Shown here: in pieces, positions 23,803 through 45,751 of the stretch | Layout: each line of letters begins with the position of its first letter | How positions within the stretch are numbered: the stretch's first letter is position 1 | NCBI GenBank assembly: GCA_024683775.1 | Contig: GCA_024683775.1_4106.1 | Strand: one strand, 5' to 3' | Length of the DNA stretch: 64,000 nt | Origin: a phage | The notes under the pieces: model-generated | Database searches by the model: none | The model's input: only the letters and a program-made list of their open reading frames with translations | Told to the model about the DNA's origin: nothing | Translations under genes and position numbers: made by a program

Positions 23803-24011
23803 ACACTATGAACATTGAACAGTACTACATTGATGCACTACCAACAAAAGGTCTACGAGAAAGCCTACTGTATACACAAAATAATTATATAAACTTCAAA
23901 CATTGTCCTAAACTCTTGAACTCGTACAGGAATAATAAAATAAGAAATGCTGTACAAGGGGTAGAAAGTATGCAATACTATTACATCCTAACCCTTTTAA
24001 TCGAGCACTAA
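23799..24011 (+). CDS. small hypothetical protein (70 aa); paralog of 24210
   Basis: ATGA start/stop overlap; N-term MNTMNIEQYYIDALP similar to 24210 MKTMNIHQYYLDILP. Confidence 0.6.
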   Translation: MNTMNIEQYYIDALPTKGLRESLLYTQNNYINFKHCPKLLNSYRNNKIRNAVQGVESMQYYYILTLLIEH

Positions 24012-24012
24012 T

Positions 24013-24198
24013 ATGTATAAAGAATTCTACTGTAGTAAGCTGCACAAACAATACAGAGATTCATTTCCCAATGAACCTATGGATATGAATAGTCCCTTTT
24101 ATAAATTTGACTTCAGACTGGAGACACGTTATGCAATAGAACATCAATTTCCTGAAACTAAGTACTTATCTATCATGAACCTCATCTTTAAGTTCTAA
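24013..24198 (+). CDS. small hypothetical protein (61 aa)
   Basis: ORF 1 nt after previous stop; N-term MYKEFY. Confidence 0.55.
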   Translation: MYKEFYCSKLHKQYRDSFPNEPMDMNSPFYKFDFRLETRYAIEHQFPETKYLSIMNLIFKF

Positions 24199-24209
24199 AA
24201 GAGTACTAT

Positions 24210-24422
24210 ATGAAAACTATGAACATACACCAGTACTACTTAGATATTCTCCCTAAAGATGTACAGTTCATCCTTAAACAAGAATACAGTACTTTAAAAA
24301 ACCTTAAAAGAACCGCACCGAATGTATTAATCCTGCACCAAGAAAATGTAGTTGATAATATTCTACAAGGTGTACCAGGGACCGAGTACTTTAACATAAT
24401 AAGGCTAATTACATTACCATGA
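24210..24422 (+). CDS. small hypothetical protein (70 aa); paralog of 23799
   Basis: Sequence similarity to 23799 ORF. Confidence 0.6.
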   Translation: MKTMNIHQYYLDILPKDVQFILKQEYSTLKNLKRTAPNVLILHQENVVDNILQGVPGTEYFNIIRLITLP

Positions 24423-24604
24423 ATCATATATTATACTATTACCAAAATCTATCCGACAGGGACAAGTACACCCACAACTCCAATGTATGGTACTACAAAC
24501 GCGGTAGTATAAGAGACAAACAACATTACTTCTGTATTGCTATAAAAGAAGCACTAACAACTAAGTACACGTACAGAGCAGTACTGAAACTTATTGATAT
24601 GTAA
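24419..24604 (+). CDS. small hypothetical protein, C-terminus YRAVLKLIDM (subfamily A)
   Basis: ATGA overlap with previous gene; conserved C-terminal motif. Confidence 0.6.
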   Translation: MNHILYYYQNLSDRDKYTHNSNVWYYKRGSIRDKQHYFCIAIKEALTTKYTYRAVLKLIDM

Positions 24605-24614
24605 AGAGAATACT

Positions 24615-24797
24615 ATGAGCATTGAATTGTACTTAAGTAAATTACAGCCTGGCGATAGATTCATCTACAATAAGTTCGAATTCAACTACAAGAACGGGAG
24701 CAACAAATATCGTCGAGGATACCTATATACAAGCACAAGAGATGCACAAAACGAAAAGTACACATACAGAGAAGTACTTAAACTAATCTCTATTTGA
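24615..24797 (+). CDS. small hypothetical protein, C-terminus YTYREVLKLISI (subfamily A)
   Basis: Start moved to ATG 24615 (tracked ORF begins at TTG); conserved C-terminus. Confidence 0.6.
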   Translation: MSIELYLSKLQPGDRFIYNKFEFNYKNGSNKYRRGYLYTSTRDAQNEKYTYREVLKLISI

Positions 24798-24805
24798 GGT
24801 AATAT

Positions 24806-24991
24806 ATGAATACATTTGAGTACTATACAAATAAACTATCTATGCCTGAAAGATCTCATCTCTATGTGTGGAGAAATGCGTATAAAAGCGGCAATAAACT
24901 TATACAAAGAAATTCCCTTACAGTGTGTACAAATTTAATTAAAGCAGAGTACCGCACATATATTGAAGTACTCAAACTGATAGCAATATAA
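24806..24991 (+). CDS. small hypothetical protein, C-terminus YIEVLKLIAI (subfamily A)
   Basis: 61-aa ORF; conserved C-terminus. Confidence 0.6.
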   Translation: MNTFEYYTNKLSMPERSHLYVWRNAYKSGNKLIQRNSLTVCTNLIKAEYRTYIEVLKLIAI

Positions 24992-24999
24992 GGTACTCT

Positions 25000-25179
25000 A
25001 TGCAAGAATTCTATATCTATAACCTCCAGCACAAAGATAGATACAACTATAATAAATTCCAAAGGTACTACACAGTCGGGAACAAAAGAGATAAAAAACG
25101 TTATCTACTCTCGTGTACAGTAGAAGCACAAAACGAAAAGTACACGTACAGAGAAGTACTTAAACTAATCTTAATCTAA
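25000..25179 (+). CDS. small hypothetical protein (59 aa), C-terminus YTYREVLKLILI (subfamily A)
   Basis: ORF below the 60-aa track cutoff, found by reading the sequence (ATG 25000, TAA 25177-79). Confidence 0.55.
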   Translation: MQEFYIYNLQHKDRYNYNKFQRYYTVGNKRDKKRYLLSCTVEAQNEKYTYREVLKLILI

Positions 25180-25186
25180 GGTAGAC

Positions 25187-25375
25187 ATGAACACTTTTGA
25201 GTACTACTTCAATAAACTAAACCACATAGAACAAAGTATGCACAACTCATTTATTCAGCACCATCAATCATCTGCACATGGAATTAAAAATATATCGATT
25301 GAGATTATCACTACCCGTGTACTGTCATCTGAACGTTATATGTATATTGATGTACTGAAACTCATCTCTATGTAA
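25187..25375 (+). CDS. small hypothetical protein, C-terminus YIDVLKLISM (subfamily A)
   Basis: 62-aa ORF; conserved C-terminus. Confidence 0.6.
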   Translation: MNTFEYYFNKLNHIEQSMHNSFIQHHQSSAHGIKNISIEIITTRVLSSERYMYIDVLKLISM

Positions 25376-25383
25376 GGAATAAT

Positions 25384-25563
25384 ATGCAAGAATACTATAT
25401 AGAACACATAAGCATTAAAGACCGTTTCATGTACGACACCTTCGTGAAGTACTACAACCTGGCAACTAATAGTACTAAAAATATTAATCTCAATAGCTGC
25501 ATTCATCACGCACTAACAAAAGATAATCCCTTCAGGGAAATCCTCGCTCTCGCATCTGTATAA
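25384..25563 (+). CDS. small hypothetical protein (59 aa), MQEYYIEH..
   Basis: ORF below track cutoff found by reading (ATG 25384, TAA 25561-63); N-terminus resembles 25000 ORF. Confidence 0.5.
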   Translation: MQEYYIEHISIKDRFMYDTFVKYYNLATNSTKNINLNSCIHHALTKDNPFREILALASV

Positions 25564-25574
25564 AGGAAAACCAA

Positions 25575-26234
25575 ATGAAACTTAATGCACACAGCAAACA
25601 ATACCTTAAGCACTTTAAATACCTCAACAGTATTCAAGCAGAATCTTTTACACCAGCATATACGTATCACCCAAATGTACTAAAGAAACGAAATAAAAAG
25701 AAAAAATCCAGAAATGTTCTCGTATCTAAGAACCTCAAATCGTACTTGAAGAAAAATAGTATAGCTCTTGCTTTTATTAATATCTATAATACTGATTTAA
25801 AAGTATTGAGTACTAATACCAGCACAAAAGCACTAAAGAATGCATCTATCTATATACACATTGATAATATCCCGTGCACTATAATTCTATCTTTCGGGAA
25901 TGTATACTTCTTCGGGAATTGTAATAGCACCCATGATATCAGTACTGCACAATTCCAAATCGGCGATATGTACTGCATGGGTTCAGAAAAAATACACGAT
26001 AACATGCACTTCTTCCAAAAGCAACGTACTAACGAAACTGATACAGTACTGCAATTCCTCAAAGAACTAGAACACAAAGAATTATCCGAGGAAGAAGAAT
26101 TCATGTACAGTACTGTAATCGATAATCCAGGACTCTATAAAAACGCGTACAAACTAACAAAACATGTACAGGAACTTATCAGTACTGATAAGAAATTTCA
26201 TCACCTCATTACGTATATTTCAAACTATGTATAA
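25575..26234 (+). CDS. hypothetical protein (219 aa), lysine-rich N-terminal region, C-terminal EEEEFMYSTVIDNP motif (EE-FQ family outlier)
   Basis: ORF with SD AAAGGAAAA; motif shared with 2164 and the 55.6-64 kb family. Confidence 0.65.
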   Translation: MKLNAHSKQYLKHFKYLNSIQAESFTPAYTYHPNVLKKRNKKKKSRNVLVSKNLKSYLKKNSIALAFINIYNTDLKVLSTNTSTKALKNASIYIHIDNIPCTIILSFGNVYFFGNCNSTHDISTAQFQIGDMYCMGSEKIHDNMHFFQKQRTNETDTVLQFLKELEHKELSEEEEFMYSTVIDNPGLYKNAYKLTKHVQELISTDKKFHHLITYISNYV

Positions 26235-26409
26235 AGAATACTACAAAGATAAAATCCCAATGCATCTACAACACCATATACCAAACGTTGCATTGGGTAT
26301 CAAAGATCACGCAAAGATAATGTTCCAACAATGTACTAAGTACACGCTCATATACGATGATAATCCATATATGCTGTACTACGTAGTAATGCTAACATTC
26401 AGGTACTAA
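26227..26409 (+). CDS. small hypothetical protein, MYKEYY... C-term LTFRY (subfamily B)
   Basis: Start at ATG 26227 overlapping previous stop; family N- and C-terminal motifs. Confidence 0.55.
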   Translation: MYKEYYKDKIPMHLQHHIPNVALGIKDHAKIMFQQCTKYTLIYDDNPYMLYYVVMLTFRY

Positions 26410-26410
26410 T

Positions 26411-26590
26411 ATGAATACTTATAAAGAATTCTACCTCTCGTACCTTAATTCCGATATAGTAACATCCAATACATTCAGTACTAAAATTATCTATAATGAA
26501 GTAATGAAAGAATGTATTAAAGGTGCTATTAACCCTAAAGATACGTATGACTTGTACTATGCAGTACTAACCCTTGTTTTCACGAAATAA
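26411..26590 (+). CDS. small hypothetical protein (59 aa), MNTYKEFY.. (subfamily B)
   Basis: ORF below track cutoff found by reading (ATG 26411, TAA 26588-90). Confidence 0.5.
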   Translation: MNTYKEFYLSYLNSDIVTSNTFSTKIIYNEVMKECIKGAINPKDTYDLYYAVLTLVFTK

Positions 26591-26598
26591 CACATAAT

Positions 26599-26790
26599 AT
26601 GAATAACCACAAAGAATACTACATAGAGAAACTCCCAATGTATCTCCAACACCTTGTACCAACAAAACAATTGAGTATAGAAAAAGACTACGAAAAAGAC
26701 TATTTCATTAAGTGCACTAAATCCTCGATAGATATTGAGGACTATAATAGAGTACTGTATCACATCCTTTTACTAATATATAAGTACTAA
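26599..26790 (+). CDS. small hypothetical protein, MNNHKEYY... LLIYKY (subfamily B)
   Basis: 63-aa ORF with family motifs. Confidence 0.6.
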   Translation: MNNHKEYYIEKLPMYLQHLVPTKQLSIEKDYEKDYFIKCTKSSIDIEDYNRVLYHILLLIYKY

Positions 26791-26791
26791 T

Positions 26792-26980
26792 ATGAATAAC
26801 CACAAAGAATACTACACACAATTTCTCCCCAGTATATTTGAACACTACGCCAGATATAAAGTCCCCCTGGATAACGATTTGGCAGTACTGGGATTCAATA
26901 ACTGCATAGAACGAAGTATAGAAAATAGTAGTAGCTATGACCAGCTATATAACACTATCCTACTTATATTCAGGTACTAA
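26792..26980 (+). CDS. small hypothetical protein, MNNHKEYY... LLIFRY (subfamily B)
   Basis: 62-aa ORF with family motifs. Confidence 0.6.
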   Translation: MNNHKEYYTQFLPSIFEHYARYKVPLDNDLAVLGFNNCIERSIENSSSYDQLYNTILLIFRY

Positions 26981-26981
26981 T

Positions 26982-27170
26982 ATGCATAAAGAATACTACA
27001 CAAAATATTTCCCAATGTACCTCAGTACTAATCTATTAGATAAACCTCGCGGTATCAATGCTCAAAACGATAAAGTGTACTTTACTATGTGCACTAAAGC
27101 ATGTATACTAGATTTTGATAGCTATCATCGAGTACTGTATCATACACTGTACCTAGCTTTCGTGTACTAA
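26982..27170 (+). CDS. small hypothetical protein, MHKEYY... LAFVY (subfamily B)
   Basis: Start at ATG 26982 right after previous stop (tracked ORF extends upstream into previous gene). Confidence 0.6.
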   Translation: MHKEYYTKYFPMYLSTNLLDKPRGINAQNDKVYFTMCTKACILDFDSYHRVLYHTLYLAFVY

Positions 27171-27180
27171 AGAGGCCAAT

Positions 27181-27387
27181 ATGAACGAACAGAAAGAATT
27201 TTACACCAAACACCTCAGTGCATCAGAACAAATGTTTCTAAGGAGTGTATCACCTTTAAGTTTAGATACACCACACGCCAGAGATTGCTTTAATAATTGT
27301 ATACGTATTACTCTAGAAGCTTTAGAAAACAATAACAAAAATATTCAATACTCAGGCGTAATGGGACTAATATTCTTCTATGAATAA
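27181..27387 (+). CDS. small hypothetical protein, MNEQKEFY.. (subfamily B); paralog of 27761
   Basis: 68-aa ORF; HLSASEQMFLRS vs HLSPTEQMFLRT in 27761. Confidence 0.6.
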   Translation: MNEQKEFYTKHLSASEQMFLRSVSPLSLDTPHARDCFNNCIRITLEALENNNKNIQYSGVMGLIFFYE

Positions 27388-27568
27388 CAAAGAATTCTAC
27401 TTAAACCATCTGGAACTAAACTCCCAAATGCTTATACCACTAAACCCAATAGATATCAAGGATAAGAAAAATACCAAACAATTCCACTACCACACACTAT
27501 GTGCTATCAACCCAGATTATAATACATATAAACTGTACTACATTCTCGCCCTAATATATAGGTACTGA
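27380..27568 (+). CDS. small hypothetical protein, MNNKEFY... LIYRY (subfamily B)
   Basis: 62-aa ORF overlapping previous by 8 nt. Confidence 0.6.
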   Translation: MNNKEFYLNHLELNSQMLIPLNPIDIKDKKNTKQFHYHTLCAINPDYNTYKLYYILALIYRY

Positions 27569-27569
27569 T

Positions 27570-27755
27570 ATGCATAGAGAATACTATATACAATTTGTTA
27601 AAGGGAACTACAAACACGCCGTCCCCGTAAACCCCTTAAATTCTAATGACCCAAGTACTATATTCTTGTTCCATGACGCAATACGTACAGTACTCAATAC
27701 TAAAGATGAACAGGTGCAGTACGTATTCTTACTATTACTTATATACAGACACTAA
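27570..27755 (+). CDS. small hypothetical protein, MHREYY... LIYRH (subfamily B)
   Basis: 61-aa ORF. Confidence 0.6.
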   Translation: MHREYYIQFVKGNYKHAVPVNPLNSNDPSTIFLFHDAIRTVLNTKDEQVQYVFLLLLIYRH

Positions 27756-27760
27756 CTAAT

Positions 27761-27970
27761 ATGAATAAAGAACATAAAGAATTCTATTCCAAACACCTCA
27801 GCCCCACAGAACAAATGTTTCTAAGGACTACTGCACCTTTAAGTACTGATACTTATTTCGGCAGAGTATGCTACAATAATTGTATTCAAATGACTTTAAA
27901 CGCAAACGACAATAATAACAGTACTAATATGTACTCCGGCATCATAGGTATACTATTCCTATATGAATAA
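27761..27970 (+). CDS. small hypothetical protein, MNKEHKEFY.. (subfamily B)
   Basis: 69-aa ORF; paralog of 27181. Confidence 0.6.
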   Translation: MNKEHKEFYSKHLSPTEQMFLRTTAPLSTDTYFGRVCYNNCIQMTLNANDNNNSTNMYSGIIGILFLYE

Positions 27971-28154
27971 AGAACATAAAGATTTCTATATAAGTAAACT
28001 AAAAGAAAACGAACAAGCATGGGTTAACAATTTAATCCCCCTGGCAATGACTCAATACGAATTTAATATGTGTACAAAGATTGTTTTAACTACTAATGAT
28101 ATCTCTAATACGTACTACTTCCTATTAAGAGTACTATATGGTACTTTGAAATAA
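27963..28154 (+). CDS. small hypothetical protein, MNKEHKDFY.. (subfamily B)
   Basis: 63-aa ORF. Confidence 0.6.
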   Translation: MNKEHKDFYISKLKENEQAWVNNLIPLAMTQYEFNMCTKIVLTTNDISNTYYFLLRVLYGTLK

Positions 28155-28165
28155 TAAGGTATACT

Positions 28166-28372
28166 ATGCAGAACATAAAAAACTATAAAGAGTACTATAT
28201 AAGTAAACTACCACCGACTGACCAAGCATGGATTAGATCTATAATAGTACTGGCATTTAATAGATATGCATTTAACAGATGTACCGAGATTGCTATAGAC
28301 CCTTATAATATTAAAGAGAATGTACAGCATAATCAGTACTACTATATGTTAATGCTTATATATAGGAAGTAA
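28166..28372 (+). CDS. small hypothetical protein, ...KEYY... LIYRK (subfamily B), last of array
   Basis: 68-aa ORF. Confidence 0.6.
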   Translation: MQNIKNYKEYYISKLPPTDQAWIRSIIVLAFNRYAFNRCTEIAIDPYNIKENVQHNQYYYMLMLIYRK

Positions 28373-28497
28373 TTCAACATATAGACAGGGGAAGCTCCGC
28401 AGGGAAAGCATTGGACAGGCTTTAACAATTAGAAGAATTGTTAAAATTCAGCCTGGACAAATGCGATCACTAGGATTCTCCCCAGGCTAAACCCCGT

Positions 28498-28570
28498 AAT
28501 CATATGTAGTCATAAGTAATCATATATAAACATTTAAGTAATCATTTATAATCACTACTGTGATTAGTAT
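28498..28570. repeat. iteron-like short direct repeats (GTAATCAT units)
   Basis: AAGTAATCAT repeated at least 3 times within ~60 bp, in a region with no ORFs. Confidence 0.4.
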
Positions 28571-29399
28571 TGAGTACTAGAGTGTAATAGAGTACAGGAA
28601 TGTGCTCGTTTAATCAAGAACGTAGCAGTACTGCCCCAAAAGTATTCAGTACTGAAGGTGTCGATATGCCACTAAGTAGGCAGAGGAAGTCTGCCGTACT
28701 TTGTAGTTTCCAAGCTCCTTTTCCATTTTGCAAATTACATCAAATGTAATCAAAAGTAATCACGCAATGATTAGTACTGAATTATTACTTTCACCTTAAT
28801 TTCAATTACCCTTTTACCCTTCGGGGTAAAATTCAATTACCCCTTGAGGCTCCAGCAAAAAGTTGGTTAGTACTCCATCCTAAATCTCGATCCTAAAAAT
28901 TTTGGAGTACCTATGAAATAAAAGTTGGATCTTCGAAAGTTGAAATTTACGTTGGGACGTTTATGATTTGTGGGATATAATGATGTTTGTAGTCGGGTAG
29001 TTCTCAAGAATATCAGTACTGAATGGTGAAAGAAAGTTATTGACATTATGATTCAGTACTGTATAATGTTCTACATAGGGTGATGAGTTGCTGCGAACAA
29101 TTCATTTACTCTACCTCCTGTCGTGAGACAGTACAGAAAAGATAGTTCCTCCTGTGGTGGTACATCTTTTTGAACCTCATATGAAAATCGTAATAACAGT
29201 ACTGATATTAACAGAATGGTATCAGTACTGATTTTAATCTAAAGCATTATGCCACCAGCACAAGCTGGTGGATTCCCTCTAACAGTATTCAGTACTACAT
29301 GATAGTCTTCATCCTCCTAGGGTAACATAGTGAGGGCTATGATGGCAGTACTGAATACTCCCTTTCAAAAGATAGATCTATGGTATAGTACTGACGGAT

Positions 29400-29590
29400 T
29401 TTGGGTGTAGTTACCCTGGATGGATTTTGGGCGTAGATATGTCTAGCCCTCCAGAAGTCTGGAAGTAAAGATGGCTATCCATCTAGACGGCTAAACGGCT
29501 AGATTTCTGGATGGCTGGATGGCTAGACGTTTGGACGGCTAAACTGCTAGATGGTTACACGTCTGGAAGTATAGACGGCTAAATCAAAAT
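29400..29590. repeat. cluster of short direct repeats (GGATTTTGGG[TC]GTAG; ACGGCTAAA; GGCTAGA; TCTGGAAGTA)
   Basis: Multiple 7-15 bp units repeated 2-4 times each; non-coding context. Confidence 0.5.
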
Positions 29591-30201
29591 TTTATTTTGT
29601 TTTTTCCAATAGTTCCCCTACCGCGTGGGGATAGTTTCCCCGCAGTATCTGGCGTTAGATTTTTCTGAATCTGGAATCATTATCTTATAAACTGGGGGCA
29701 ATGTCAACGACCTGGACGGATATTTTTAAAAATTTTTTCAGTACTGAATTTTGGGCGTAACTATGCACCCGGTGGGCTTGAGTCTTTCTCGACTTGATGG
29801 AACTATTATACAGTACTGAAAAAATAAAGCAATACCCTGGAAGCAAAAAAGTTTTAATTAATTTGCTTGCTATCCTGGGCCGGACTATGGTACTATATTT
29901 CAGTACTGAGAAAGTGCGTTTACCTGCTAGGGTGCGGGAGTGTATCCTTTTTTTATATCTTGAATTTTGGGCGGATCTTCCCACCCCCTGGGGTATCCGC
30001 TTTCTCGCGTCTATGTAGTAATTATACGCTTTTTCAGGATCAAGTCAATACCTAAAAACAAAATAATTGAAAATAATTTAACGCGTTTAAACGGCCTGTA
30101 AAGCCCTGGAATGATTGGAATGGTGCAAATGTATAGCTTATGTGTATTAATGCGTTAGAATGCGTCTGAGGCCGTTTTACGGGGTATAGGGATGATTTAG
30201 T

Positions 30202-30355
30202 GGATTGATTCAGTACTGAATAATAGTACTCCTATATAGAAAGATAGTTCCCCTGGATTGATTCAGTACTGAATAATAGTACTCCTATATAGAAAGATAG
30301 TTCCCCTGGATTGATTCAGTACTGAATAATAGTTCCCCTATATAGAAAGAAAACT
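30202..30355. repeat. three tandem direct repeats of 53 bp
   Basis: Unit GGATTGATTCAGTACTGAATAATAGTACTCCTATATAGAAAGATAGTTCCCCT at 30202, 30255 and (degenerate) 30308. Confidence 0.8.
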
Positions 30356-30381
30356 ATTTTAAAAGTATTTGTAGAAAGTAC

Positions 30382-30409
30382 TTGCACCGTACTGATAAAA
30401 GCGTATAAT
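30382..30409 (+). promoter_or_regulatory. early promoter (conserved type)
   Basis: AGTACTTGCAC -35-like (TTGCAC 30382-87), 16-bp spacer, TATAAT 30404-09, then GTTTTACATC start region. Confidence 0.65.
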
Positions 30410-30423
30410 GTTTTACATCGAGA

Positions 30424-30440
30424 GCGGGAACACTTCCCGC
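30424..30440 (+). promoter_or_regulatory. conserved GC-rich 5'UTR stem-loop
   Basis: GCGGGA-ACACT-TCCCGC immediately downstream of promoter start region and upstream of SD/ATG 30465. Confidence 0.6.
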
Positions 30441-30464
30441 TACACATTACGAGAGATTAAAACG

Positions 30465-30827
30465 ATGGCGACTCAAATCAATAAAATTATTGCTAACCTG
30501 GTTAACTTCCGCGACGAGATGAAAGATCTTCCGGCGGCAACGGTTAAAACTCACATTGACGCATACCGCGAACTGATTAAAATGCTGCCGCTTAAGCGTG
30601 AACAATACGCCGCTACCGTGATGCTTGATGCGATGATCCATAAGATGATCTCAAATGATTTGACGATGGTTTATCAGTATATGGGTGAAAATTTCGCGGT
30701 GTGCAGTAAGCCAGTACCAGGGATGGCAACAACTGAGGAATTGCACGGCTTAAACTTAAAACAAGATGCATGGGATAATATGCCTCGTTTCCTGGTATGG
30801 GCTGACAGTGGCAAAATTTACAAATAA
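30465..30827 (+). CDS. hypothetical early protein (120 aa)
   Basis: Start at ATG 30465; the tracked N-terminal extension MFYIESG... is translation of the promoter -10/hairpin. Confidence 0.7.
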   Translation: MATQINKIIANLVNFRDEMKDLPAATVKTHIDAYRELIKMLPLKREQYAATVMLDAMIHKMISNDLTMVYQYMGENFAVCSKPVPGMATTEELHGLNLKQDAWDNMPRFLVWADSGKIYK

Positions 30828-30841
30828 GTTTAATAAAGTAC

Positions 30842-30869
30842 TTGCAAACTATGTTTAATGGCGTATAAT
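30842..30869 (+). promoter_or_regulatory. early promoter (conserved type)
   Basis: TTGCAA 30842-47, 16-bp spacer, TATAAT 30864-69, GTTTTACATC, then stem-loop GGGGAATAGTTCCCC. Confidence 0.65.
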
Positions 30870-30919
30870 GTTTTACATCAGGTGGGGAATAGTTCCCCAC
30901 TATATAAGAGGATTAAAAA

Positions 30920-31159
30920 ATGGCTAAATCAAAAAAGTTCTTAGGTCACAAAAACAAAACTCATTGGAATGTAAGCCTTTGGATTAATAACGATGAGGGA
31001 TTGTATCGGTTGGCCCTGGATTTTATTAACGACAACACTAATCGCAATGATGCGGCCCGTCATATGATGTTATTTTTAGAACAGACTGGACAAGATAAAA
31101 CACCGGACGGATTCAAATATAGCACTACTGCGATCCGTGCGGCAATGGTTGGAATGTAA
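30920..31159 (+). CDS. hypothetical early protein (79 aa); paralog of 32960
   Basis: SD AGAGGA; shares GHKNKTHWNVSLWINN and PDGFKYSTTAIRAAMVGM with 32960 ORF. Confidence 0.7.
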   Translation: MAKSKKFLGHKNKTHWNVSLWINNDEGLYRLALDFINDNTNRNDAARHMMLFLEQTGQDKTPDGFKYSTTAIRAAMVGM

Positions 31160-31244: not shown

Positions 31245-31511
31245 ATGAATATTAAGTATTTTGCGACGCGTGAACAAGCTCGGATCGCCGCACGCCAGGA
31301 CGGGGCAACGTTTAAAGATATGGGCGTACAATCGGAACGTGGTAAACGTTGGGCCATTGTAAAGCGTAGTACCGCCAGATCATTACAGTACTGGTTAGCG
31401 GCCTTAAAAAGTCCCGATAGTGTATCGCGTCGAGTGGTAGAAATAAAGCTCGACCGAAAGGGCAACCGCGTGACCGTGTACCGTACTAAAAAGATTGCAG
31501 TACTTGAATAA
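31245..31511 (+). CDS. hypothetical early protein (88 aa); paralog of 43401
   Basis: Start at ATG 31245 with AAGGG SD; shares FATREQARI..GETFKDMG..RKGNRVTVY with 43401 ORF. Confidence 0.7.
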   Translation: MNIKYFATREQARIAARQDGATFKDMGVQSERGKRWAIVKRSTARSLQYWLAALKSPDSVSRRVVEIKLDRKGNRVTVYRTKKIAVLE

Positions 31512-31598
31512 AAAGTACTTGCTAACTATGTTTAAAGGCGTATAATGTTTTACATCGAGAGCGGGAACTCTTCCCGCCTATAACCTGGAGTAATAAAA

Positions 31599-31829
31599 AT
31601 GACTAATATGTATATGACTGAAGTTAAAACCGTAAAAGATACTACCACGAATAAAACTACTTACTTACAGCGGATCTGTGGTGTATGGCAACGTATCAGC
31701 AAATCAAAGTACTTTAAATTAACATCATATGCAAATCGTTCGGATTCATTCAGTACTGAAATAAAAGGTAATAAAGTACACCAATACGGCACTTATTATT
31801 ATTACAGCCTGGACGCGATTGCAGTATAA
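31599..31829 (+). CDS. hypothetical early protein (76 aa)
   Basis: Promoter + stem-loop GCGGGAACTCTTCCCGC upstream; SD GGAG. Confidence 0.65.
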   Translation: MTNMYMTEVKTVKDTTTNKTTYLQRICGVWQRISKSKYFKLTSYANRSDSFSTEIKGNKVHQYGTYYYYSLDAIAV

Positions 31830-32257
31830 GCAGTTTACAAATCTTTACAATTGCCGGTATTGACTTATTTTGTCAGTACTGGCATAATGTATTCATTGGC
31901 AGATAAGCCGTAGCCCATAGGGTGCGGGAGTGTATCTATAGAAAAATTAGTTTAGTATAGTTACAATTGTGCACCCGGTGGGTTAGCTGTTGTCATGGGG
32001 TATATTATGCCAGTACTTGATAATGCTGTCAATACTTTTTTTTTACTATTCAGTACTGAAAACTATTTTTAAAAAGTACTTGTAAACTATGTTTAAAGGC
32101 GTATAATGTTTTACATCAGGACGGGGAACGAAATAAGTAACTTCCCGTTAAGTAGCCCAGGAGTAAGGCACACGAAAAACTCCCCTGATAAAATAGTTTG
32201 ACAATAGAAAGTAAAAGCGTATAATACTTACATCAACTACTGAATGAGGGTTACAAA

Positions 32258-32869
32258 ATGAAAACTATCACTACTACTACTTTTGTTATGGCTTTTTCTG
32301 AACTGAACGCAGAACAAAAAACGGCGGCTATCGAACTGGTTCGGGATCGTGAGCGTTCATGTGAGGATAATTTCTTTGCTGAGGGCGTTATCGAGTACTA
32401 TAAAGAAACAGTACTACCAGAATACGGCATAGATGAAGCTGAATTGCAATACAGTGGTTTTTGGTCGCAAGGTGACGGTGCATCAATCAGTACTGACCAC
32501 GTTGACGCAGTGAAGTTTTTACGCAAGGTAAGAGCATTAACTAAGTATCGCTCAATCCGTCACTTGCTGAATGAAGATGATTTGGCGATGAGTGTAGAAC
32601 GTTCACACTCTCGCTACGCACACGAAAACACGGTAAGCGGGTACATTGAATCGGCTTACACTGATTTAACCGCAAAACAAGAAACGTTAGTTAATGAGCT
32701 TGAGGAACTACTCACTGAAACTATTCGTGAATTGTCCCGCAAGTTGTACCGTGATTTAGAGAATGCATATGAGGATCAATTCACTACTGAAAACATTACG
32801 GCACTGATTGAGGGTAACGAATATCAATTCAATGTTATTGATGGCGTAGTGGAATCAATCGAATATTAA
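32258..32869 (+). CDS. hypothetical acidic early protein (203 aa)
   Basis: ORF with two upstream promoter-like boxes (32075-32110 and 32195-32230); SD GAGGG. Confidence 0.7.
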   Translation: MKTITTTTFVMAFSELNAEQKTAAIELVRDRERSCEDNFFAEGVIEYYKETVLPEYGIDEAELQYSGFWSQGDGASISTDHVDAVKFLRKVRALTKYRSIRHLLNEDDLAMSVERSHSRYAHENTVSGYIESAYTDLTAKQETLVNELEELLTETIRELSRKLYRDLENAYEDQFTTENITALIEGNEYQFNVIDGVVESIEY

Positions 32870-32881
32870 TTTAAAAAGTAC

Positions 32882-32909
32882 TTGCAAACTAAGTTTAAAA
32901 GCGTATAAT
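32882..32909 (+). promoter_or_regulatory. early promoter (conserved type)
   Basis: TTGCAA 32882-87, spacer, TATAAT 32904-09; stem-loop GCGGGGAATGGTTCCCCGC 32923-41. Confidence 0.65.
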
Positions 32910-32959
32910 ACTTTATATCGAGGCGGGGAATGGTTCCCCGCTCAAACGAGGATTTAAAA

Positions 32960-33199
32960 ATGGCTAGTACTAAAACTTACAACGGACACAAAAACAAAAC
33001 TCATTGGAATGTAAGCCTTTGGATTAATAACGGTGAGTCATTGTATCGGCTTGCACAAAGTTGCATCGCACAAAGTAGAACTAAAGATATTGCTGCGGAA
33101 TGTATGTACCGCAGATTAAAAGCCAACGGTACTACTACAACGCCGGACGGCTTTAAGTATAGCACTACTGCGATCCGTGCTGCAATGGTTGGAATGTAA
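32960..33199 (+). CDS. hypothetical early protein (79 aa); paralog of 30920
   Basis: Start at ATG 32960; conserved C-terminus identical to 30920 ORF. Confidence 0.7.
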   Translation: MASTKTYNGHKNKTHWNVSLWINNGESLYRLAQSCIAQSRTKDIAAECMYRRLKANGTTTTPDGFKYSTTAIRAAMVGM

Positions 33200-33256
33200 T
33201 ATTCAGTACTGAGATAATGGCGGGTAATAGTTCCCGCCTTTACTGAGGGTTATCTA

Positions 33257-33517
33257 ATGAGTAAAGTAATTAGCTATACAGCACTAAGCAAGACATTATC
33301 TATTAGCCAGTGCACCGATGGTTATTGGCTATTTGATGAAACGCGTGGCATGAATTTAGCCATGCGTGCAAAAACTGCTGAGGCGGCGTATCTTGAAGCA
33401 TTGGAATACTACCAGGAACGTTTAAAGGAAGTAGAAGAAGATTATAAAAGCCTCAAAGCGAAAGTAGATCATTTCGTCGGTCAATTCATCGAGGAAGACG
33501 ACGACAAACAATATTGA
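33257..33517 (+). CDS. hypothetical early protein (86 aa)
   Basis: ORF preceded by stem-loop GGCGGGTAATAGTTCCCGCC 33219-38 and SD GAGGG. Confidence 0.65.
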   Translation: MSKVISYTALSKTLSISQCTDGYWLFDETRGMNLAMRAKTAEAAYLEALEYYQERLKEVEEDYKSLKAKVDHFVGQFIEEDDDKQY

Positions 33518-33603
33518 AAAAGTACTTGCAATTAGTTTTCAGTACTGTATAATGGTTTACATCAAAGGGAGAAATGGTTCTCCCTGGTAATGAGGAAAAT
33601 AAA

Positions 33604-33825
33604 ATGGCTAATATCACTACTCTTTCCCAACTGGAAGCACTGGTTAAATCTATGCGGGAACATGCCGACAAAATCGGCGTACAAGATCCAGCCGTTTGCT
33701 TCTGCGACGAATTGAATGATGATACCCTGGTAATAGCAGAAGTCCAGGACGTTTCTAACTATTCCTCGCGTTACACTGGCGGCGTAGCAAATAAAGGCGA
33801 CTTCTGTTTATACCTTACAAAATAA
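33604..33825 (+). CDS. hypothetical early protein (73 aa)
   Basis: Start at ATG 33604 after promoter and stem-loop GGGAGAAATGGTTCTCCC; SD GAGGAAAA. Confidence 0.65.
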   Translation: MANITTLSQLEALVKSMREHADKIGVQDPAVCFCDELNDDTLVIAEVQDVSNYSSRYTGGVANKGDFCLYLTK

Positions 33826-33828
33826 CAA

Positions 33829-33860
33829 CGCGGGGAGATAATAACTCCCCGTTACTTTTT
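33829..33860 (+). terminator. rho-independent terminator
   Basis: CGGGGAG-ATAATAA-CTCCCCG stem-loop followed by TTACTTTTT. Confidence 0.6.
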
Positions 33861-34068
33861 CAGTACTGAATCATTTAATAGACGGATCTCGGCACCCGGT
33901 GGGTTAGTGACTGTTTCGTCTTGATGTAGTAATTATGCCAGTACTGGATGCACTTGTCAACAACTATTTTTCAAATACTTTTTATTAAAATACTTGCAAT
34001 TAGTTTTTAAACGCGTATAATGTTTTGCATAGGGGGAGCGGTTCCCCTGGTAACTAAGGAATAATAAA

Positions 34069-34305
34069 ATGCTTGAACAAATCAAATCAACGTCTGCGAA
34101 TGTAACGGGAACGGTAGTACACTTTACTAGTGATGAATCGCGGGGTGTACCCTATTGTGCTGTACATGTAAACACTGAGGGTAACTACTGGTTTACGGTT
34201 TACGGATCATATTCATTTGGACGACCAGGGCATCAAAAAATTCTGGATAAAGTACAGCCAACGGGTAAAAATATCACTGCTGAAATGTTTTATAAAAAAT
34301 CATAA
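34069..34305 (+). CDS. hypothetical early protein (78 aa)
   Basis: Promoter + stem-loop GGGGGAGCGGTTCCCC upstream; SD AAGGAA. Confidence 0.65.
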   Translation: MLEQIKSTSANVTGTVVHFTSDESRGVPYCAVHVNTEGNYWFTVYGSYSFGRPGHQKILDKVQPTGKNITAEMFYKKS

Positions 34306-34389
34306 AGTACTTGATAATAGTTTTTAGTACTGTATAATATTTTACATCGCAAGGGGGAGCGGTTCCCCCTGGTAACTAAGGATAATCAA

Positions 34390-34689
34390 ATGAAAATTAC
34401 AATCATCGCCCTGGCTTTATCTGTTTCCTCTTTCGCTGTTAATGCGTCATTAGATGTAAGTAGTGAAAAATTCATTCAGTGCACTGTTGCAATGACCGAT
34501 GAAAGTACTGGCGAGATTGTATTAAAGGATCTGGAGATTCAGCCGGAAGCATTTAAAAACGGCCCGTTCCATGAAGAAGACGAAAACGGTAGCACGACAA
34601 TTTATTATGATGCCAGTACTAAACGCGGTTCGGTCACTGTAATGGATACCGAGAAAGTAACTCATACCGGCGTTATTAATTGCCGTTGA
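34390..34689 (+). CDS. small secreted/periplasmic protein (99 aa) with N-terminal signal peptide
   Basis: N-term MKITIIALALSVSSFAVNASL: basic residue, hydrophobic core, A-x-A-like cleavage site (VNA-S); promoter + stem-loop upstream. Confidence 0.65.
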   Translation: MKITIIALALSVSSFAVNASLDVSSEKFIQCTVAMTDESTGEIVLKDLEIQPEAFKNGPFHEEDENGSTTIYYDASTKRGSVTVMDTEKVTHTGVINCR

Positions 34690-34710
34690 TAGATACTACG
34701 GGGTAACATC

Positions 34711-34941
34711 ATGACTAAGCGAATTGTTTTACTTAACGAAAGCAGTACTACACAACTACTTAACGCCGTGCATTATGATATTGAAACGAGCGTTAATCTT
34801 ATCAGTACTGTCGTACTGTTGGACACTGGAAAGGTCGCCAATGATAAAGCGATTGCAGGTATACTAACGGATCTTGAGCCTGGTAGCAGTGCACCAATAA
34901 CGTTAAATGGTAAAGTGTTTAATATTTTACTCACTGATTAA
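34711..34941 (+). CDS. hypothetical early protein (76 aa)
   Basis: ORF with SD; followed by terminator. Confidence 0.6.
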   Translation: MTKRIVLLNESSTTQLLNAVHYDIETSVNLISTVVLLDTGKVANDKAIAGILTDLEPGSSAPITLNGKVFNILLTD

Positions 34942-34947
34942 GTACAT

Positions 34948-34976
34948 AGCCCACCTGGTGGGCTTTTTTGTTTTTG
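34948..34976 (+). terminator. rho-independent terminator
   Basis: AGCCCACC-TGGTGGGCT palindrome followed by TTTTTTGTTTTTG. Confidence 0.75.
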
Positions 34977-35174
34977 TAGTATCGTAGTACTGAGATACTT
35001 TGAAAATAGTTTTAAGAAAGTAGTTGACATTACCGCAGAAAAGCGTAGAATGTATTACATCAAGACGGGGAGCACTAAGTAGACCGCCAGTAAGTCGAAC
35101 GAAAAACTGGACACGTCGAGAAAACTTTGATACACTAATAAACGTAAACTAAACTTTAATTGAGGATTTATAAA

Positions 35175-35657
35175 ATGGCTAATGTAAAATCATTCATCAA
35201 AGCACTGGTAGCAAATGAAACTAACGTCGCGGCTGAGATCCTGGCTGAACTGGATAACGATACCATGAAAGCGGTACGCAATAATTTTAACATCGCGTAC
35301 AGTACTGCGAAAGAACTACAAGCAAATAAAGCGGCAGAAATTGAAGCGGCAAAGGCGGCCCGTGAAGCAGAACTACAAGCAACAATCGAAAGTATTCAGG
35401 CGGCAGTAGTTGGATTGGATCTGGAAGTAGTTACAGAGATGGCACAAAAAGCCCTGGCGGTTAAGTATGGGGAAGACAAGCCAGAAGTAAAAGCCAAAAA
35501 ATGGATTCAGGAACGCGTAGCGGTAGTACTGGACAACGGGGAAGAATATCTGATTCCGGTGCGTGGTAACTGCATTGCGGTAGTACTGGATGCGATTAAC
35601 TCCAGTGGTATGACTCGCGAGGAATGGATCAAAGCTCATCGCAAAGTTGAAGCATAA
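35175..35657 (+). CDS. hypothetical early protein (160 aa), alanine/glutamate-rich, predicted helical
   Basis: Start at ATG 35175 with SD GAGGA; followed by terminator. Confidence 0.7.
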   Translation: MANVKSFIKALVANETNVAAEILAELDNDTMKAVRNNFNIAYSTAKELQANKAAEIEAAKAAREAELQATIESIQAAVVGLDLEVVTEMAQKALAVKYGEDKPEVKAKKWIQERVAVVLDNGEEYLIPVRGNCIAVVLDAINSSGMTREEWIKAHRKVEA

Positions 35658-35678
35658 CAATTAAAGTACTGAATCACT

Positions 35679-35710
35679 AGCCCACTGTATAAGTGGGCTT
35701 TTTTGTGTTT
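35679..35710 (+). terminator. rho-independent terminator
   Basis: AGCCCAC-TGTATAA-GTGGGCT stem-loop followed by TTTTTTGTGTTT. Confidence 0.75.
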
Positions 35711-35941
35711 ATCGTTTACCATGCCACCAGCACCGCCTAGAAACGATTCTAACGCATTAAACTGATTATCTGATGCATTGCCCTAGCTGGTGGCGTTAAG
35801 GCTGTAAGAACGCGATTGAGAGCGTTTAAAGTATTTTGCAAAAAGTAATAAAAAGTACTTGCACGATTAAGAGATTAGCGTATAATGTTTTACATCGAGA
35901 GGGGGAAACGGTTCTCCTTCCAAATCAAAGGAATTAAAACA

Positions 35942-36169
35942 ATGGCTATCGTAATCACTCGCGTAACTGGTACTACTGGCAATTCTTCTACTGTTGCTGT
36001 AATTACTAATAAGAAAGGTGCGGAATTGCATTTTGCAATGGATAAATGGGCCGTTAATGAGTTCGGTCAGTGGGCAAGTGTAGCATACATTGAAACCTAT
36101 CAAGTGCCGTCGATTAGTTTAACTGATTTGGGCGTTGAGCGTATCCTTTGCCTGGATGAATTAAATTAA
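35942..36169 (+). CDS. hypothetical early protein (75 aa)
   Basis: Start at ATG 35942 after promoter + stem-loop; tracked extension MFYIERGK is promoter-derived. Confidence 0.65.
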   Translation: MAIVITRVTGTTGNSSTVAVITNKKGAELHFAMDKWAVNEFGQWASVAYIETYQVPSISLTDLGVERILCLDELN

Positions 36170-36255
36170 AAAAGTACTTGCAAAGTAAATCAGATAAAGT
36201 ATAATACATTACATCAAGGGGAGAAATGGTTCTCCCTGATAATGAGGAAACTAAT

Positions 36256-36399
36256 ATGAAAACTTGTCAATGTGGTAAAAAATCTATTACTGGTTTAAAG
36301 CGGGGCGTTGCACTTTGCCAGTACCATTATAATTTACAAGTATGGGGTAAAGAATGGGCCGACCAGGTGGAAGCAGCAAAGAAAGCAAAAAGTAAGTAA
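36256..36399 (+). CDS. small cysteine-containing protein (47 aa)
   Basis: ORF below track cutoff found by reading; preceded by promoter, stem-loop GGGAGAAATGGTTCTCCC and SD GAGGAAA. Confidence 0.5.
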   Translation: MKTCQCGKKSITGLKRGVALCQYHYNLQVWGKEWADQVEAAKKAKSK

Positions 36400-36417
36400 A
36401 ATATTATCACAGTACTA

Positions 36418-36446
36418 TTGACATAGTTTGATAGTACTGGCATAAT
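36418..36446 (+). promoter_or_regulatory. sigma70 consensus-like promoter
   Basis: TTGACA 36418-23, 17-bp spacer, CATAAT 36441-46. Confidence 0.65.
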
Positions 36447-36489
36447 AGATTTTATCAAGACGACACATATTAATTTAAGGAATACTAAA

Positions 36490-36813
36490 ATGGCTAAAAC
36501 TATCATTAACACCGTTTCCCTGGCTGCAATCCGTGCAATCAATGTTGACGGTAAACGTTGGACTGATTCATATGGCAATACTTATCATTCTTGTCATGTA
36601 AGCGTTGAACTGGATAACGGTTTGAATGATCTGGCGGTTGAATCATTTACTTATGGCTATGAAGATGCATATCAACAAACGGCGTTAGATCTCTTAAAGG
36701 AATCAGTAGACGGGCTTAATACTGATGACACCTCCCTTACTCGTTTGTGCAATGATCTTAATATCCCGTTGCATTGTACTGTACAGAATGTTAAACGCAA
36801 AAAAGATCTTTAA
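36490..36813 (+). CDS. hypothetical early protein (107 aa); paralog of 42978
   Basis: Shares RWTDS.GNTYHSC.VS...FTYGY and C-terminal VKRKKD with 42978 ORF; SD AAGGAA. Confidence 0.7.
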   Translation: MAKTIINTVSLAAIRAINVDGKRWTDSYGNTYHSCHVSVELDNGLNDLAVESFTYGYEDAYQQTALDLLKESVDGLNTDDTSLTRLCNDLNIPLHCTVQNVKRKKDL

Positions 36814-36893
36814 TTAGCTTTACTTTATGCAGATACTTTGATATAGTGTCTGCATAGGGGAAAGAAATTAAATTAACTTAAGAGGAACGTATA

Positions 36894-37163
36894 ATGAAAA
36901 ATATCAGTACTTTAATCGACGCAGGTACACATGTTCGGCGGTCTATGGTTGCAACCAGTACTACAAAACAAGTACCAAGCGGTTATCTTGTATTTGTGCA
37001 CGATGGTAAACTCCTGGAACGTTCAATCAATTTTGATGTTAAAAACAATTGCCGTTTTATTATCTTTAAGCGTGAGCAATATAAAATTGATTTACCAGCA
37101 AAGCCCATAAGCGGGGCGTACAACGTGCAATCATTGTTTGAACGTCAACCATACACCTATTAA
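36894..37163 (+). CDS. hypothetical early protein (89 aa)
   Basis: ORF with SD AGAGGAA. Confidence 0.6.
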   Translation: MKNISTLIDAGTHVRRSMVATSTTKQVPSGYLVFVHDGKLLERSINFDVKNNCRFIIFKREQYKIDLPAKPISGAYNVQSLFERQPYTY

Positions 37164-37214
37164 TCAAAACATCGTTAGCGGTCGATTTAGGCCGCTTATA
37201 TTGGGGATTATACC

Positions 37215-37487
37215 ATGAACGTTAATCAAGTACTGAATGAGATCGAAAGCATCATTAAACCGATGAAGCGTACTGATGCTATGTTAACACCGGAAGAATG
37301 CCGCCTTTATGAGCGTTACAGCGTCGAACAAGTCCAGGCGATGGCTATGGCTACCCCAGCCGTTAAACCGCCTGAGAATGCGTTACAGGACGTTACAGGG
37401 GATTATATCATCAATCCAGTACTAGGGAAGATGGCTGCAATCACCGAAGATCAACAAGACTACTTAAGCCAGTACTTAAAAGGTTAA
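37215..37487 (+). CDS. hypothetical early protein (90 aa)
   Basis: ORF with SD GGGGA. Confidence 0.6.
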   Translation: MNVNQVLNEIESIIKPMKRTDAMLTPEECRLYERYSVEQVQAMAMATPAVKPPENALQDVTGDYIINPVLGKMAAITEDQQDYLSQYLKG

Positions 37488-37492
37488 TTAAT

Positions 37493-37702
37493 ATGCTTAC
37501 TGTACAGGATAAGATCGACATCTTAAAGGTTAATATGTATGTGATTGATGCAGTACCTGGTAAAGTATTTGCATACGATGACAGTACTGTAAGCGATTTC
37601 TACTATAGCCAGGCCGTGGGGGATCTTTCTGTACAGTCGGTTATTGAAAACGTAGTTAATGCAGCGTATGAGCATTTACTTTCAAATAGTACTTGCAATT
37701 AG
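37493..37702 (+). CDS. hypothetical early protein (69 aa)
   Basis: ORF 5 nt after previous stop; 3' end overlaps next promoter. Confidence 0.55.
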   Translation: MLTVQDKIDILKVNMYVIDAVPGKVFAYDDSTVSDFYYSQAVGDLSVQSVIENVVNAAYEHLLSNSTCN

Positions 37703-37720
37703 TTTTTAAACGCGTATAAT
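37693..37720 (+). promoter_or_regulatory. early promoter (conserved type)
   Basis: TTGCAA 37693-98, spacer, TATAAT 37715-20, GTTTTACATG; stem-loop GGGGAGAAATGATTCTCCCC 37733-52. Confidence 0.65.
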
Positions 37721-37771
37721 GTTTTACATGAAGGGGAGAAATGATTCTCCCCACTAATTAAGGAATATGAA

Positions 37772-37918
37772 ATGAAAGCATCAAAAAAGAGTACTAACAA
37801 GAAAGCACGTTCAACCTTAGATGGGGTATTCCCTTTACGTTTCGTTGATGAAGTAGTTTCCTACCCGCCGGGCCTTACTCCTGAGATGGTAGAAAGTTTG
37901 CGTAAATCTAAAAAATAG
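37772..37918 (+). CDS. small basic protein (48 aa)
   Basis: ORF below track cutoff; promoter + stem-loop + SD AAGGAA upstream. Confidence 0.5.
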   Translation: MKASKKSTNKKARSTLDGVFPLRFVDEVVSYPPGLTPEMVESLRKSKK

Positions 37919-37999
37919 TACTTGCAATTAGTTTTTAGTACTGTATAATGTTTTACATGAAGGGGAGAAATGATTCTCCCCAATAACAGGAGAAACAAA

Positions 38000-38382: not shown

Positions 38383-38384
38383 AA

Positions 38385-38935: not shown

Positions 38936-38948
38936 TATAAAAAAATAG

Positions 38949-45747: not shown

Positions 45748-45751
45748 GTAT

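Follow-up and report, generated by a model that had tools for sequence, protein, structure and literature searches.

A gene-free leader at the probable junction between the unique genome and the ~21-kb direct terminal repeat of an Asteriusvirus jumbo phage

Why does a stretch of two kilobases in a phage genome carry many repeats and no convincing gene? The question was raised by positions 28373-30400 of a 64,000-nucleotide stretch of phage DNA (GenBank assembly GCA_024683775.1, contig GCA_024683775.1_4106.1; hereafter the window), described in a first-pass annotation, made from the sequence alone, as repeat-dense and gene-free. Every feature listed there was found again, with small coordinate corrections. 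In a similarity search, 42 phage records matched the 2-kb region at 87-99% identity; all of these phages infect E. coli or Salmonella and are jumbo phages of the Asteriusvirus type (e.g. PBECO4, 121Q, G17, Sharanji and fEgEco12). By this resemblance, the window comes from an E. coli jumbo phage of the genus Asteriusvirus, akin to PBECO4, 121Q and G17. The distance of the region from one record end was 19-21 kb in every record of 366-386 kb. The region is probably the junction of the unique genome with a direct terminal repeat (DTR) of ~21 kb, and includes a conserved leader. The annotation had it separate gene arrays from the early module, which was accurate, but did not recognise a virion chromosome end in this separation. 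The region bears on how RaK2-like jumbo phages deliver, first express and package chromosomes of >350 kb.

The ends of seven published records were compared with the window as follows: the first 200 bases of fEgEco12, BF17, vB_Ec-M-J, ELP-22, E9.1 and CRJP21 were used, together with the last 200 bases of G17 (reverse complement). All seven shared a terminal base equivalent to window position 28675 (sequence AGTAGGCAGAGG / AGTAGGCAGAGGAAGTCTGCC): six records start there and G17, in reverse complement, ends there. At the other end, five records finish with GGGCGGGTAACCT / GGGTAACCT, equivalent to window position 49555. Judged from these alignments, the virion chromosome starts at window position 28675 and the DTR ends at 49555 (28675-49555, plus strand; 20,881 bp). 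This repeat carries the early small-gene module and is present as a single copy in the window, i.e. the window assembly has the DTR collapsed to one copy. The packaging or terminal-repeat boundary proposed as one candidate by the first-pass annotation was thereby located: a physical terminus and DTR boundary fall at 28674|28675, within the region. From the 2,028 bp of the region, 302 bp lie outside the DTR, and with the remaining 1,726 bp the virion chromosome opens without a gene. The GC content was 0.38-0.41 in the DTR versus 0.33 and 0.31 in its flanks.

For close relatives, earlier publications have described both the DTR and where it ends, and the published RaK2-like DTRs (G17, Sharanji, fEgEco12, vB_Ec-M-J, Muenster, fENko-Kae01 and CBB) are the same element as the one found here. 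The termini of fEgEco12 were determined with PhageTerm and confirmed by restriction digests (fEgEco12 paper), with a DTR of 20,993 bp, which is exactly the length predicted by alignment. PhageTerm gave a DTR of 20,668 bp for Sharanji (Sharanji paper), and in the G17 paper the DTR was inferred from double (2x) read coverage. In the G17 record, bases 1-20668 recur at 350150-370817, both borders match in gene sets and in sequence, and one gene set was found twice, from 153 onward and from 350302 onward. DTR lengths in relatives were 20,668 bp (G17), 20,993 bp (fEgEco12) and 21,525 bp (vB_Ec-M-J). The ends placed here agree to the base with those of G17 and fEgEco12, and Muenster has the cut-site motif too. 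For Sharanji, UE-S1, fEgEco12 and CBB, only the existence and length of the DTR have been published, and a non-coding or intergenic region was mentioned nowhere in these four papers by term search; the G17 paper was searched for terminal-repeat terms only. The cross-genus cut-site motif, the inverted left and right sites and the promoter and hairpin anatomy of the leader, all set out below, are described in none of the DTR papers on relatives that were read. The position of the chromosome end supplies the correct start point for annotating ~40 permuted records.

The left cut-site motif, GATATGCCACTA^AGT (28663-28677, plus strand; cut between 28674 and 28675), was placed by the seven record ends. 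The window reads GATATGCCACTA^AGTAGG at this point, and a fragment of phiKp_21 (Alcyoneusvirus; a Klebsiella phage) that spans the junction has GATATGCCACTA^AGTCCG; the record of Muenster, a Klebsiella phage with PhageTerm-set ends and, again, of a genus other than that of the window phage, starts at the AGT of the same motif. The two genera thus have one and the same 15-mer across the left cut, with flanking sequences that cannot be aligned. The right cut site, GGGCGGGTAACCT^TAGCGACTTCG (49543-49566, plus strand), is cut between 49555 and 49556. In plus-strand orientation, the right sites read AACCT^TAGCGAC in the window, AGGCT^TAGCAC in Muenster and TGCCT^TAGCCAC in fENko-Kae01, so that CT^TAGC (reverse complement GCTA^AG) is present in three lineages; the right site of Kae01 was foretold before it was read. 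The left site of Kae01 is CCGCTA^TATC. All six left and right sites compared contain RCTA^, inverted at the right, and in Asteriusvirus and Alcyoneusvirus the left and right sites have CTA^AG in common, in opposite orientation (the right site of the window, GTCGCTA^AGGT in reverse complement, carries CTA^AG as the left site does). This similarity of left and right sites is suggestive. Shared inverted RCTA^ sites would be expected if a single nuclease cut both boundaries on opposite strands and the repeat were then duplicated: one nuclease, presumably the terminase, would cut concatemers at two inverted RCTA^AG sites ~20.9 kb apart, with subsequent duplication of the DTR as in T7/T5-type packaging. 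A chromosome end placed to the base, with a cut-site motif common to genera and to both boundaries, offers a handle on packaging specificity.

Repeats stand on each side of the left cut. Iteron cluster I (28496-28567, plus strand; outside the DTR, 178-114 bp before the cut) consists of four direct copies of (G)TAATCA followed by TAATCAC-N5-GTGATTA, and was kept in 121Q and phage A4 and partly in G17. Iteron cluster II (28728-28774, plus strand; inside the DTR, ~55-100 bp after the cut) consists of two copies of GTAATCA followed by TAATCAC-N4-TGATTAG, and was invariant in seven DTR-bearing records. Both TAATCA clusters end in an inverted copy. Iterons had been reported by the first-pass annotation, and TAATCA was indeed found four times in direct and once in inverted orientation at 28497-28566; the second cluster (28747-28773), with TAATCA copies 72-93 bp after the cut, had not been told apart. 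Alcyoneusvirus has the same cut site with different repeats upstream, which fits lineage-specific recognition combined with conserved cleavage; the genus-specific TAATCA repeats would be the sites recognised, probably by the small subunit of the terminase. Four nucleotides from the chromosome end lies a terminal hairpin, GGCAGA-GGAAG-TCTGCC (28679-28695, plus strand), and other genera also have a left-end inverted repeat within ~30 nt of the end. Near the other boundary, a 9-bp inverted repeat TAATCCCTT...AAGGGATTG was observed at 49479-49514, 40-75 bp inside the right end of the DTR; it contains the sole GTAATC in the vicinity of that end.

Pieces of the leader were recovered from other genera by a sensitive DNA search, at the very start of their records: at 1156-1383 in Muenster (inside a PhageTerm-defined repeat of 20,030 bp), 86-1125 in fENko-Kae01 and Munch, 734-844 in the Erwinia pEa_SNUABM phages, 54-819 in Xanthomonas XbC2 and 38-144 in Yersinia fHe-Yen9-04. 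In all of these phages, the initial 1.1-1.8 kb are without convincing genes. An alignment of eight sequences contained two invariant blocks, at window positions 29593-29650 and 29975-30030, which are, on their sequence, minus-strand promoters with the first ~50-60 nt that they would transcribe. The most conserved blocks of the leader are sigma-70-type promoters, three of which point to the chromosome end, with ~50 nt of hairpin-forming DNA after each. As read from these alignments, the first 1.7 kb of the chromosome is an untranslated leader with blocks conserved across RaK2-like genera.

The total of promoter-like sites in the region was not above chance (13, versus 9.0 +/- 3.5 in shuffled sequences); individual promoters are credible because they are conserved across genera. 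The promoter TTGACA-16-TATAAT (29040-29067, plus strand), already listed in the first-pass annotation, matched the sigma-70 consensus at 12/12 positions; it carries the palindrome CAGTACTG in its spacer, has no open reading frame (ORF) after it and is invariant in the genus. Three strong minus-strand promoters had been overlooked, together with CAGTACTG, the densest repeat of the region. Unit L1 (29612-29707, minus strand) combines the promoter TTGACA-17-GATAAT (29707 to 29679; 11/12) with a structured leader that contains a bipartite hairpin (29619-29649), beyond which lies an AT-rich stretch (29575-29606). Unit L-m (29753-29845, minus strand) has the promoter TTGCTT-16-TATAAT (29845 to 29812), with CAGTACTG in the spacer, and two hairpins, one with a GAGAAA loop and the other CCC-N3-GGG. 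Unit L-o (29969-30048, minus strand) is the block most conserved across genera and has the promoter TTGACT-16-TATAAT (30048 to 30021; 11/12) and a two-hairpin leader. On the plus strand, unit R3 (29866-29955; promoter TTGCTA-18-TACTAT) converges on unit L-o and would give an RNA of ~50 nt, with a terminator-like hairpin at 29929-29948 followed by seven T. The leader is closed by the promoter of the first early gene, AAGTACTTGCA(C)-16-TATAAT (30382-30409, plus strand), a 5' hairpin and the ATG of the first early ORF at 30466.

Paired bases were then counted in the leaders that follow these promoters. The L-o-type leader forms two hairpins, of which one has the loop GAGAAA and the other reads ACCC-N4-GGGT: in ten copies, 97% of the cells were paired, versus 17-41% in slid controls, changes on both sides were seen in 4/7 pairs, and RNAalifold independently gave the same structure. 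For L1, single-sequence folds were used, since the MAFFT alignment misplaced the variable inner stems and made pair counts there uninformative. The bipartite hairpin folds in nine lineages, with the outer helix 100% paired and two of its pairs changed on both sides, and with inner stems that differ by lineage (GGGG/CCCC, CGGAATAT/ATATTCCG, CTAGT/ACTAG, CTGGT/ACCAG and AGGG/CCCT). Covariation directly 3' of conserved promoters argues for a transcribed, structured RNA. Host RNA polymerase would transcribe the leader immediately after entry, producing short, stable non-coding RNAs in both directions.

Several points weigh against the reading of this region as a chromosome end with a structured leader. 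The terminus of the window phage was carried over from relatives at 95-99% identity, and some GenBank records were possibly oriented to match earlier ones, so that seven records amount to fewer than seven independent measurements; independent determinations of the terminus are those of G17, fEgEco12, Muenster and Kae01, to the nucleotide, and that of Sharanji, for the length only. One paper gives an 8.3-kb DTR (8,298 bp) for UE-S1 (ON568341.1), an assignment considered wrong in the fEgEco12 paper. This length is at odds with the conserved cut sites and is probably an annotation error. The motif common to left and right sites comprises 4-5 bases only. The hairpins were first spotted by eye in the same small, partly redundant set in which they were later counted. 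The promoter-plus-leader module also precedes ordinary plus-strand early genes, so that its leftward copies could be relics of early promoters and not dedicated RNA genes. Finally, the roles given to iterons, palindromes and RNAs are inferred.

Could the leader mainly encode a family of small non-coding RNAs, made as promoter-plus-two-hairpin units that act in trans? This is a real possibility, though less likely than not. Host or phage functions or defence systems would be the targets, and the location in the DTR would give early expression and a double gene dosage. A covariance model of the unit found three leftward copies (29969-30026, 29753-29810 and 33880-33937, minus strand) and at least six rightward copies (31883-31937, 38415-38470, 40069-40126, 42060-42110, 45343-45398 and 48103-48153, plus strand) at E < 0.01, all of them in the DTR. 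The family has a common layout: TTGACTccggtcag..TATTAT, a variable hairpin, then CCC-N3/4-GGGTGC..GTGTATCT. A convergent pair of plus- and minus-strand units is present in the leader of every genus examined, hairpin 1 is fully covarying, the minus-strand unit at 33880-33937 runs into a bidirectional terminator (predicted RNA of ~90 nt), and R3 ends at its hairpin and seven T. However, most rightward copies precede a regular early promoter and its gene by ~110 nt and may be upstream promoters with 5'-UTR (untranslated region) stabiliser hairpins, most units are without a clear terminator, and no Rfam family was matched: in Rfam 15, no family reached the gathering score in the whole window, and E-value mode over the region gave only chance-level eukaryotic matches. 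The units of the DTR are candidate small RNAs or structured upstream leaders. The small-RNA cluster suggested in the first-pass annotation has thus gained support of an indirect kind, namely conserved promoters followed by covarying hairpins, with one unit ending at a terminator.

The leader may also contain a replication origin, a reading that is compatible with the chromosome end and structured leader proposed above and that we consider somewhat doubtful. Transcription from L1 through the structured leader, the AT-rich stretch and the 8-bp iterons would prime or activate DNA synthesis, as at those T4 origins that combine a promoter with an unwinding element or at iteron origins like lambda ori. 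The order of elements is suitable: promoter (29707-29679), hairpin (29619-29649), ~30 bp of AT-rich DNA (29575-29606) and ~13 iterons (29440-29580). Other genera have different arrays at the same position, as expected of iterons that are matched to the initiator of each lineage. Iterons beside an AT-rich stretch, with a promoter reading in, are thus present and compatible with an origin, but are not specific to one. The GC skew changes sign at 28-29 kb and has its cumulative minimum there, with plus-strand genes on both sides. The skew covers 64 kb only, however, and the switch coincides with the DTR boundary and the change in GC content, so that it could be an effect of composition and nothing else; the arrays of small genes on the left also have an odd composition (AT skew +0.2). 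DnaA boxes were absent: no TTATCCACA with one mismatch or fewer was found in 28000-31000. As an observation in its own right, positions 24000-28372 contain ~20 tandem plus-strand ORFs of 59-81 aa with a GC skew of -0.1 to -0.23 and an AT skew of +0.15 to +0.2, and the skew of this array is opposite to that of the plus-strand genes right of 30400.

Known terminally repeated phages offer points of comparison, and by analogy of architecture the closest analogue is T5, to whose untranslated repeat region the present one would be the jumbo-phage counterpart. T5 has 1,662 bp of non-coding DNA across the inner edge of its 10.1-kb terminal repeat, of which 270 bp extend into unique DNA; this region, rich in repeats and palindromes and more strongly conserved than the genes beside it, is believed to hold the injection stop signal. 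As in T5 (Repeat Region 3), a non-coding region of >1.5 kb lies mostly inside the repeat here and a few hundred bp outside it, and the repeat carries the first-expressed genes; the architecture is that of T5 in mirror image. There is no sequence similarity, however, the DTR has twice the length of the T5 repeat and the genome three times the size, and the conserved blocks are sigma-70 promoters with structured leaders, unlike those of T5. With T7, the region has in common a chromosome end, short-repeat arrays, a cluster of strong host-polymerase promoters, a gene-free leader and a first early gene, and fixed ends that arise when concatemers are cut at specific sites and the repeat is duplicated (inferred in the present case). 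The terminal repeat of T7 is 160 bp long, and its promoters A1-A3 stand before the first gene, all pointing inward; here the repeat is of 21 kb, three promoters face the chromosome end, and sequence similarity is absent. SPO1, a Bacillus phage, has a long terminal redundancy with many very small early genes, a host-takeover module. It resembles the present DTR in having a strong host-type promoter per small gene and a repeated protein-binding motif that overlaps early promoters (putative here), and differs in host and DNA chemistry. We know of no comparable untranslated leader in SPO1.

A broader proposal, which is speculative and rather unlikely as a whole, is that the leader is a conserved RaK2-like control module coupling DNA entry, early transcription and possibly the start of replication, and that the DTR encodes at least 10 undescribed small RNAs. 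Leftward promoters, convergent small RNAs and lineage-specific arrays of binding sites (Fur-box-like in Klebsiella phages) would stage the uptake or first replication of the 350-kb chromosome, in a two-step strategy like that of T5, assembled from other components. The leader gives testable sites for T5-like staged entry, for the start of replication and for the regulatory-RNA nature of the first transcripts.

That the region works as a T5-like injection stop is improbable. Two-step transfer in T5 depends on pre-early proteins of the A1/A2 type. Under this proposal, one DTR would enter first, transfer would pause at the repeat-rich untranslated DNA of the inner DTR edge while early genes are expressed, and the remaining ~350 kb would follow; the leftward promoters might help to pull in the DNA beyond the right-hand copy of the DTR. 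In its favour, the 2.0-kb non-coding region straddles the DTR edge (302 bp outside) much as in T5, its blocks are conserved across genera whose flanking DNA no longer aligns, the DTR is full of small promoter-driven genes, like a pre-early module, and the leftward promoters would face DNA that has not yet entered if the right end enters first. Against it, these phages are not known to transfer their DNA in two steps, only the architecture is alike, and the paired DnaA boxes within inverted repeats that have been put forward as the mark of the T5 signal are absent here; for this last reason, the region was not filed in the T5 injection-stop family.

Hidden small protein-coding genes are hardly credible: although ORFs of 44-99 aa are present and 5-8 'hypothetical proteins' were annotated here automatically in WPEC3, ELP-22, E9.1 and the SD-series Salmonella phages, the six frames of the region hold 262 stop codons, none of its six ORFs matched PHROGs, the ORFs overlap each other as well as promoters and hairpins, stop codons interrupt the 99-aa ORF in the homologous Kae01 block, a 49-aa ORF (28600-28749) runs across the chromosome end, conservation across genera tracks promoter and hairpin boundaries rather than reading frames, and the careful annotations of G17, 121Q and A4 leave the region empty (that of Muenster largely so). 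The absence of a convincing ORF noted at first pass is upheld by these counts, and the 'hypothetical proteins' annotated in the leader of several records are probably spurious. A tRNA/tmRNA scan of the window gave none.

The palindrome CAGTACTG occurs 13 times in the 2-kb region (6.4 per kb) and 56 times in the window, versus 0.68 expected; AGTACT occurs 254 times, versus 20.5 expected. Its density is 1.9 per kb across the DTR versus 0.07-0.5 per kb outside, and is highest at 28626-30324 and 31386-49274. Copies often lie in the spacers of sigma-70-type promoters or ~50 nt upstream of early promoters, and the palindrome is frequent in the leaders of other genera too. Its location in promoter spacers is the basis for proposing that the copies may be operators for a dimeric regulator of early transcription. 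CAGTA and TACTG are SOS half-sites, and CAGTACTG was considered as a LexA box; by eye, the spacing between palindromes (13 and 18 nt) does not fit CTG-N10-CAG, and this candidate was rejected. A literature search for CAGTACTG gave only unrelated primer sequences.

The short direct repeats reported at first pass in 29400-29590 form an array with periods of 8, 16 and 24 and the unit CTAGAYGG (~13 units of 8-bp period at 29440-29580), which Eneladusvirus and Mimasvirus have as well. Its position is taken by arrays of Fur-box-like palindromes in Alcyoneusvirus and the Kae01 group. Using 19-mers that matched GATAATGATAATCATTATC at 14/19 or more positions as the criterion, 7-8 such sites were counted in the Muenster and phiKp_21 leaders and 4 in those of Kae01 and Munch, compared with ~0.2 in shuffled sequences; this suggests binding or titration of an iron regulator at the chromosome end in Klebsiella, Salmonella and Erwinia jumbo phages. 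The palindromes, e.g. GAGAATGATTCTCATT, match the consensus at up to 16/19 positions and lie at 787-905, 1073-1097 and 1306-1324 in Muenster, at 711-799 and 1040-1058 in fENko-Kae01 and at 1042-1060 in pEa_SNUABM_12; in several genera, the convergent small units have one such site between them. Because TAATCAT is similar to a part of the Fur consensus, Fur boxes were also considered for the present phage; they were rejected, no 19-mer in the window matching at 14/19 or more.

Further repeats and hairpins were located as follows. A 53-bp tandem repeat (30201-30350, plus strand; 2.8 copies, 97% matches), described in the first-pass annotation as three copies, holds TTCAGTACTGAA in each copy; relatives have only 1-1.5 copies, so that the extra copies are a recent expansion and dispensable. 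The element GTACTCCATCCTAAATCTCGATCCTAAAAATTTTGGAGTAC (28866-28912, plus strand), an 8-bp inverted repeat that encloses a 13-bp direct repeat, is conserved across genera. A pair of CAATTACCC (28803 and 28834) stands on either side of the hairpin ACCC-TTCG-GGGT (28816-28827), as first annotated. The hairpin CCACCAGC-ACAA-GCTGGTGG, also listed there, is real and lies at 29252-29271, one base from its earlier coordinates; it is present in Kae01 and Munch too. Its reading as a putative terminator in the G17 annotation was rejected, there being no T-run on either strand. The sequence GTTCCCC-N8-GGGGATA (29612-29636) was likened to the E. coli type I-E CRISPR repeat, and this candidate was dropped (4-bp stem; absent in EJP2 and in other genera). 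A 150-bp block at 30040-30190 was invariant in six aligned Asteriusviruses, including the divergent EJP2, and contains an 8-bp inverted repeat, AAACGGCC...GGCCGTTT, which encloses ~75 nt.

Two minor observations concern the genes that border the leader and the DTR. In the G17 annotation, the first early ORF (30408-30827; G17_00053, at 7895-8314 in the G17 stretch) starts at an ATG inside the promoter -10 element (TATAATG); the start used in 121Q and A4, ATGGCGACT at 30466, is more plausible. Just beyond the right boundary of the DTR, a sigma-70-like promoter (TTGACT-14-TATATT) leads to the first gene of the unique region, whose ATG is at 49656.

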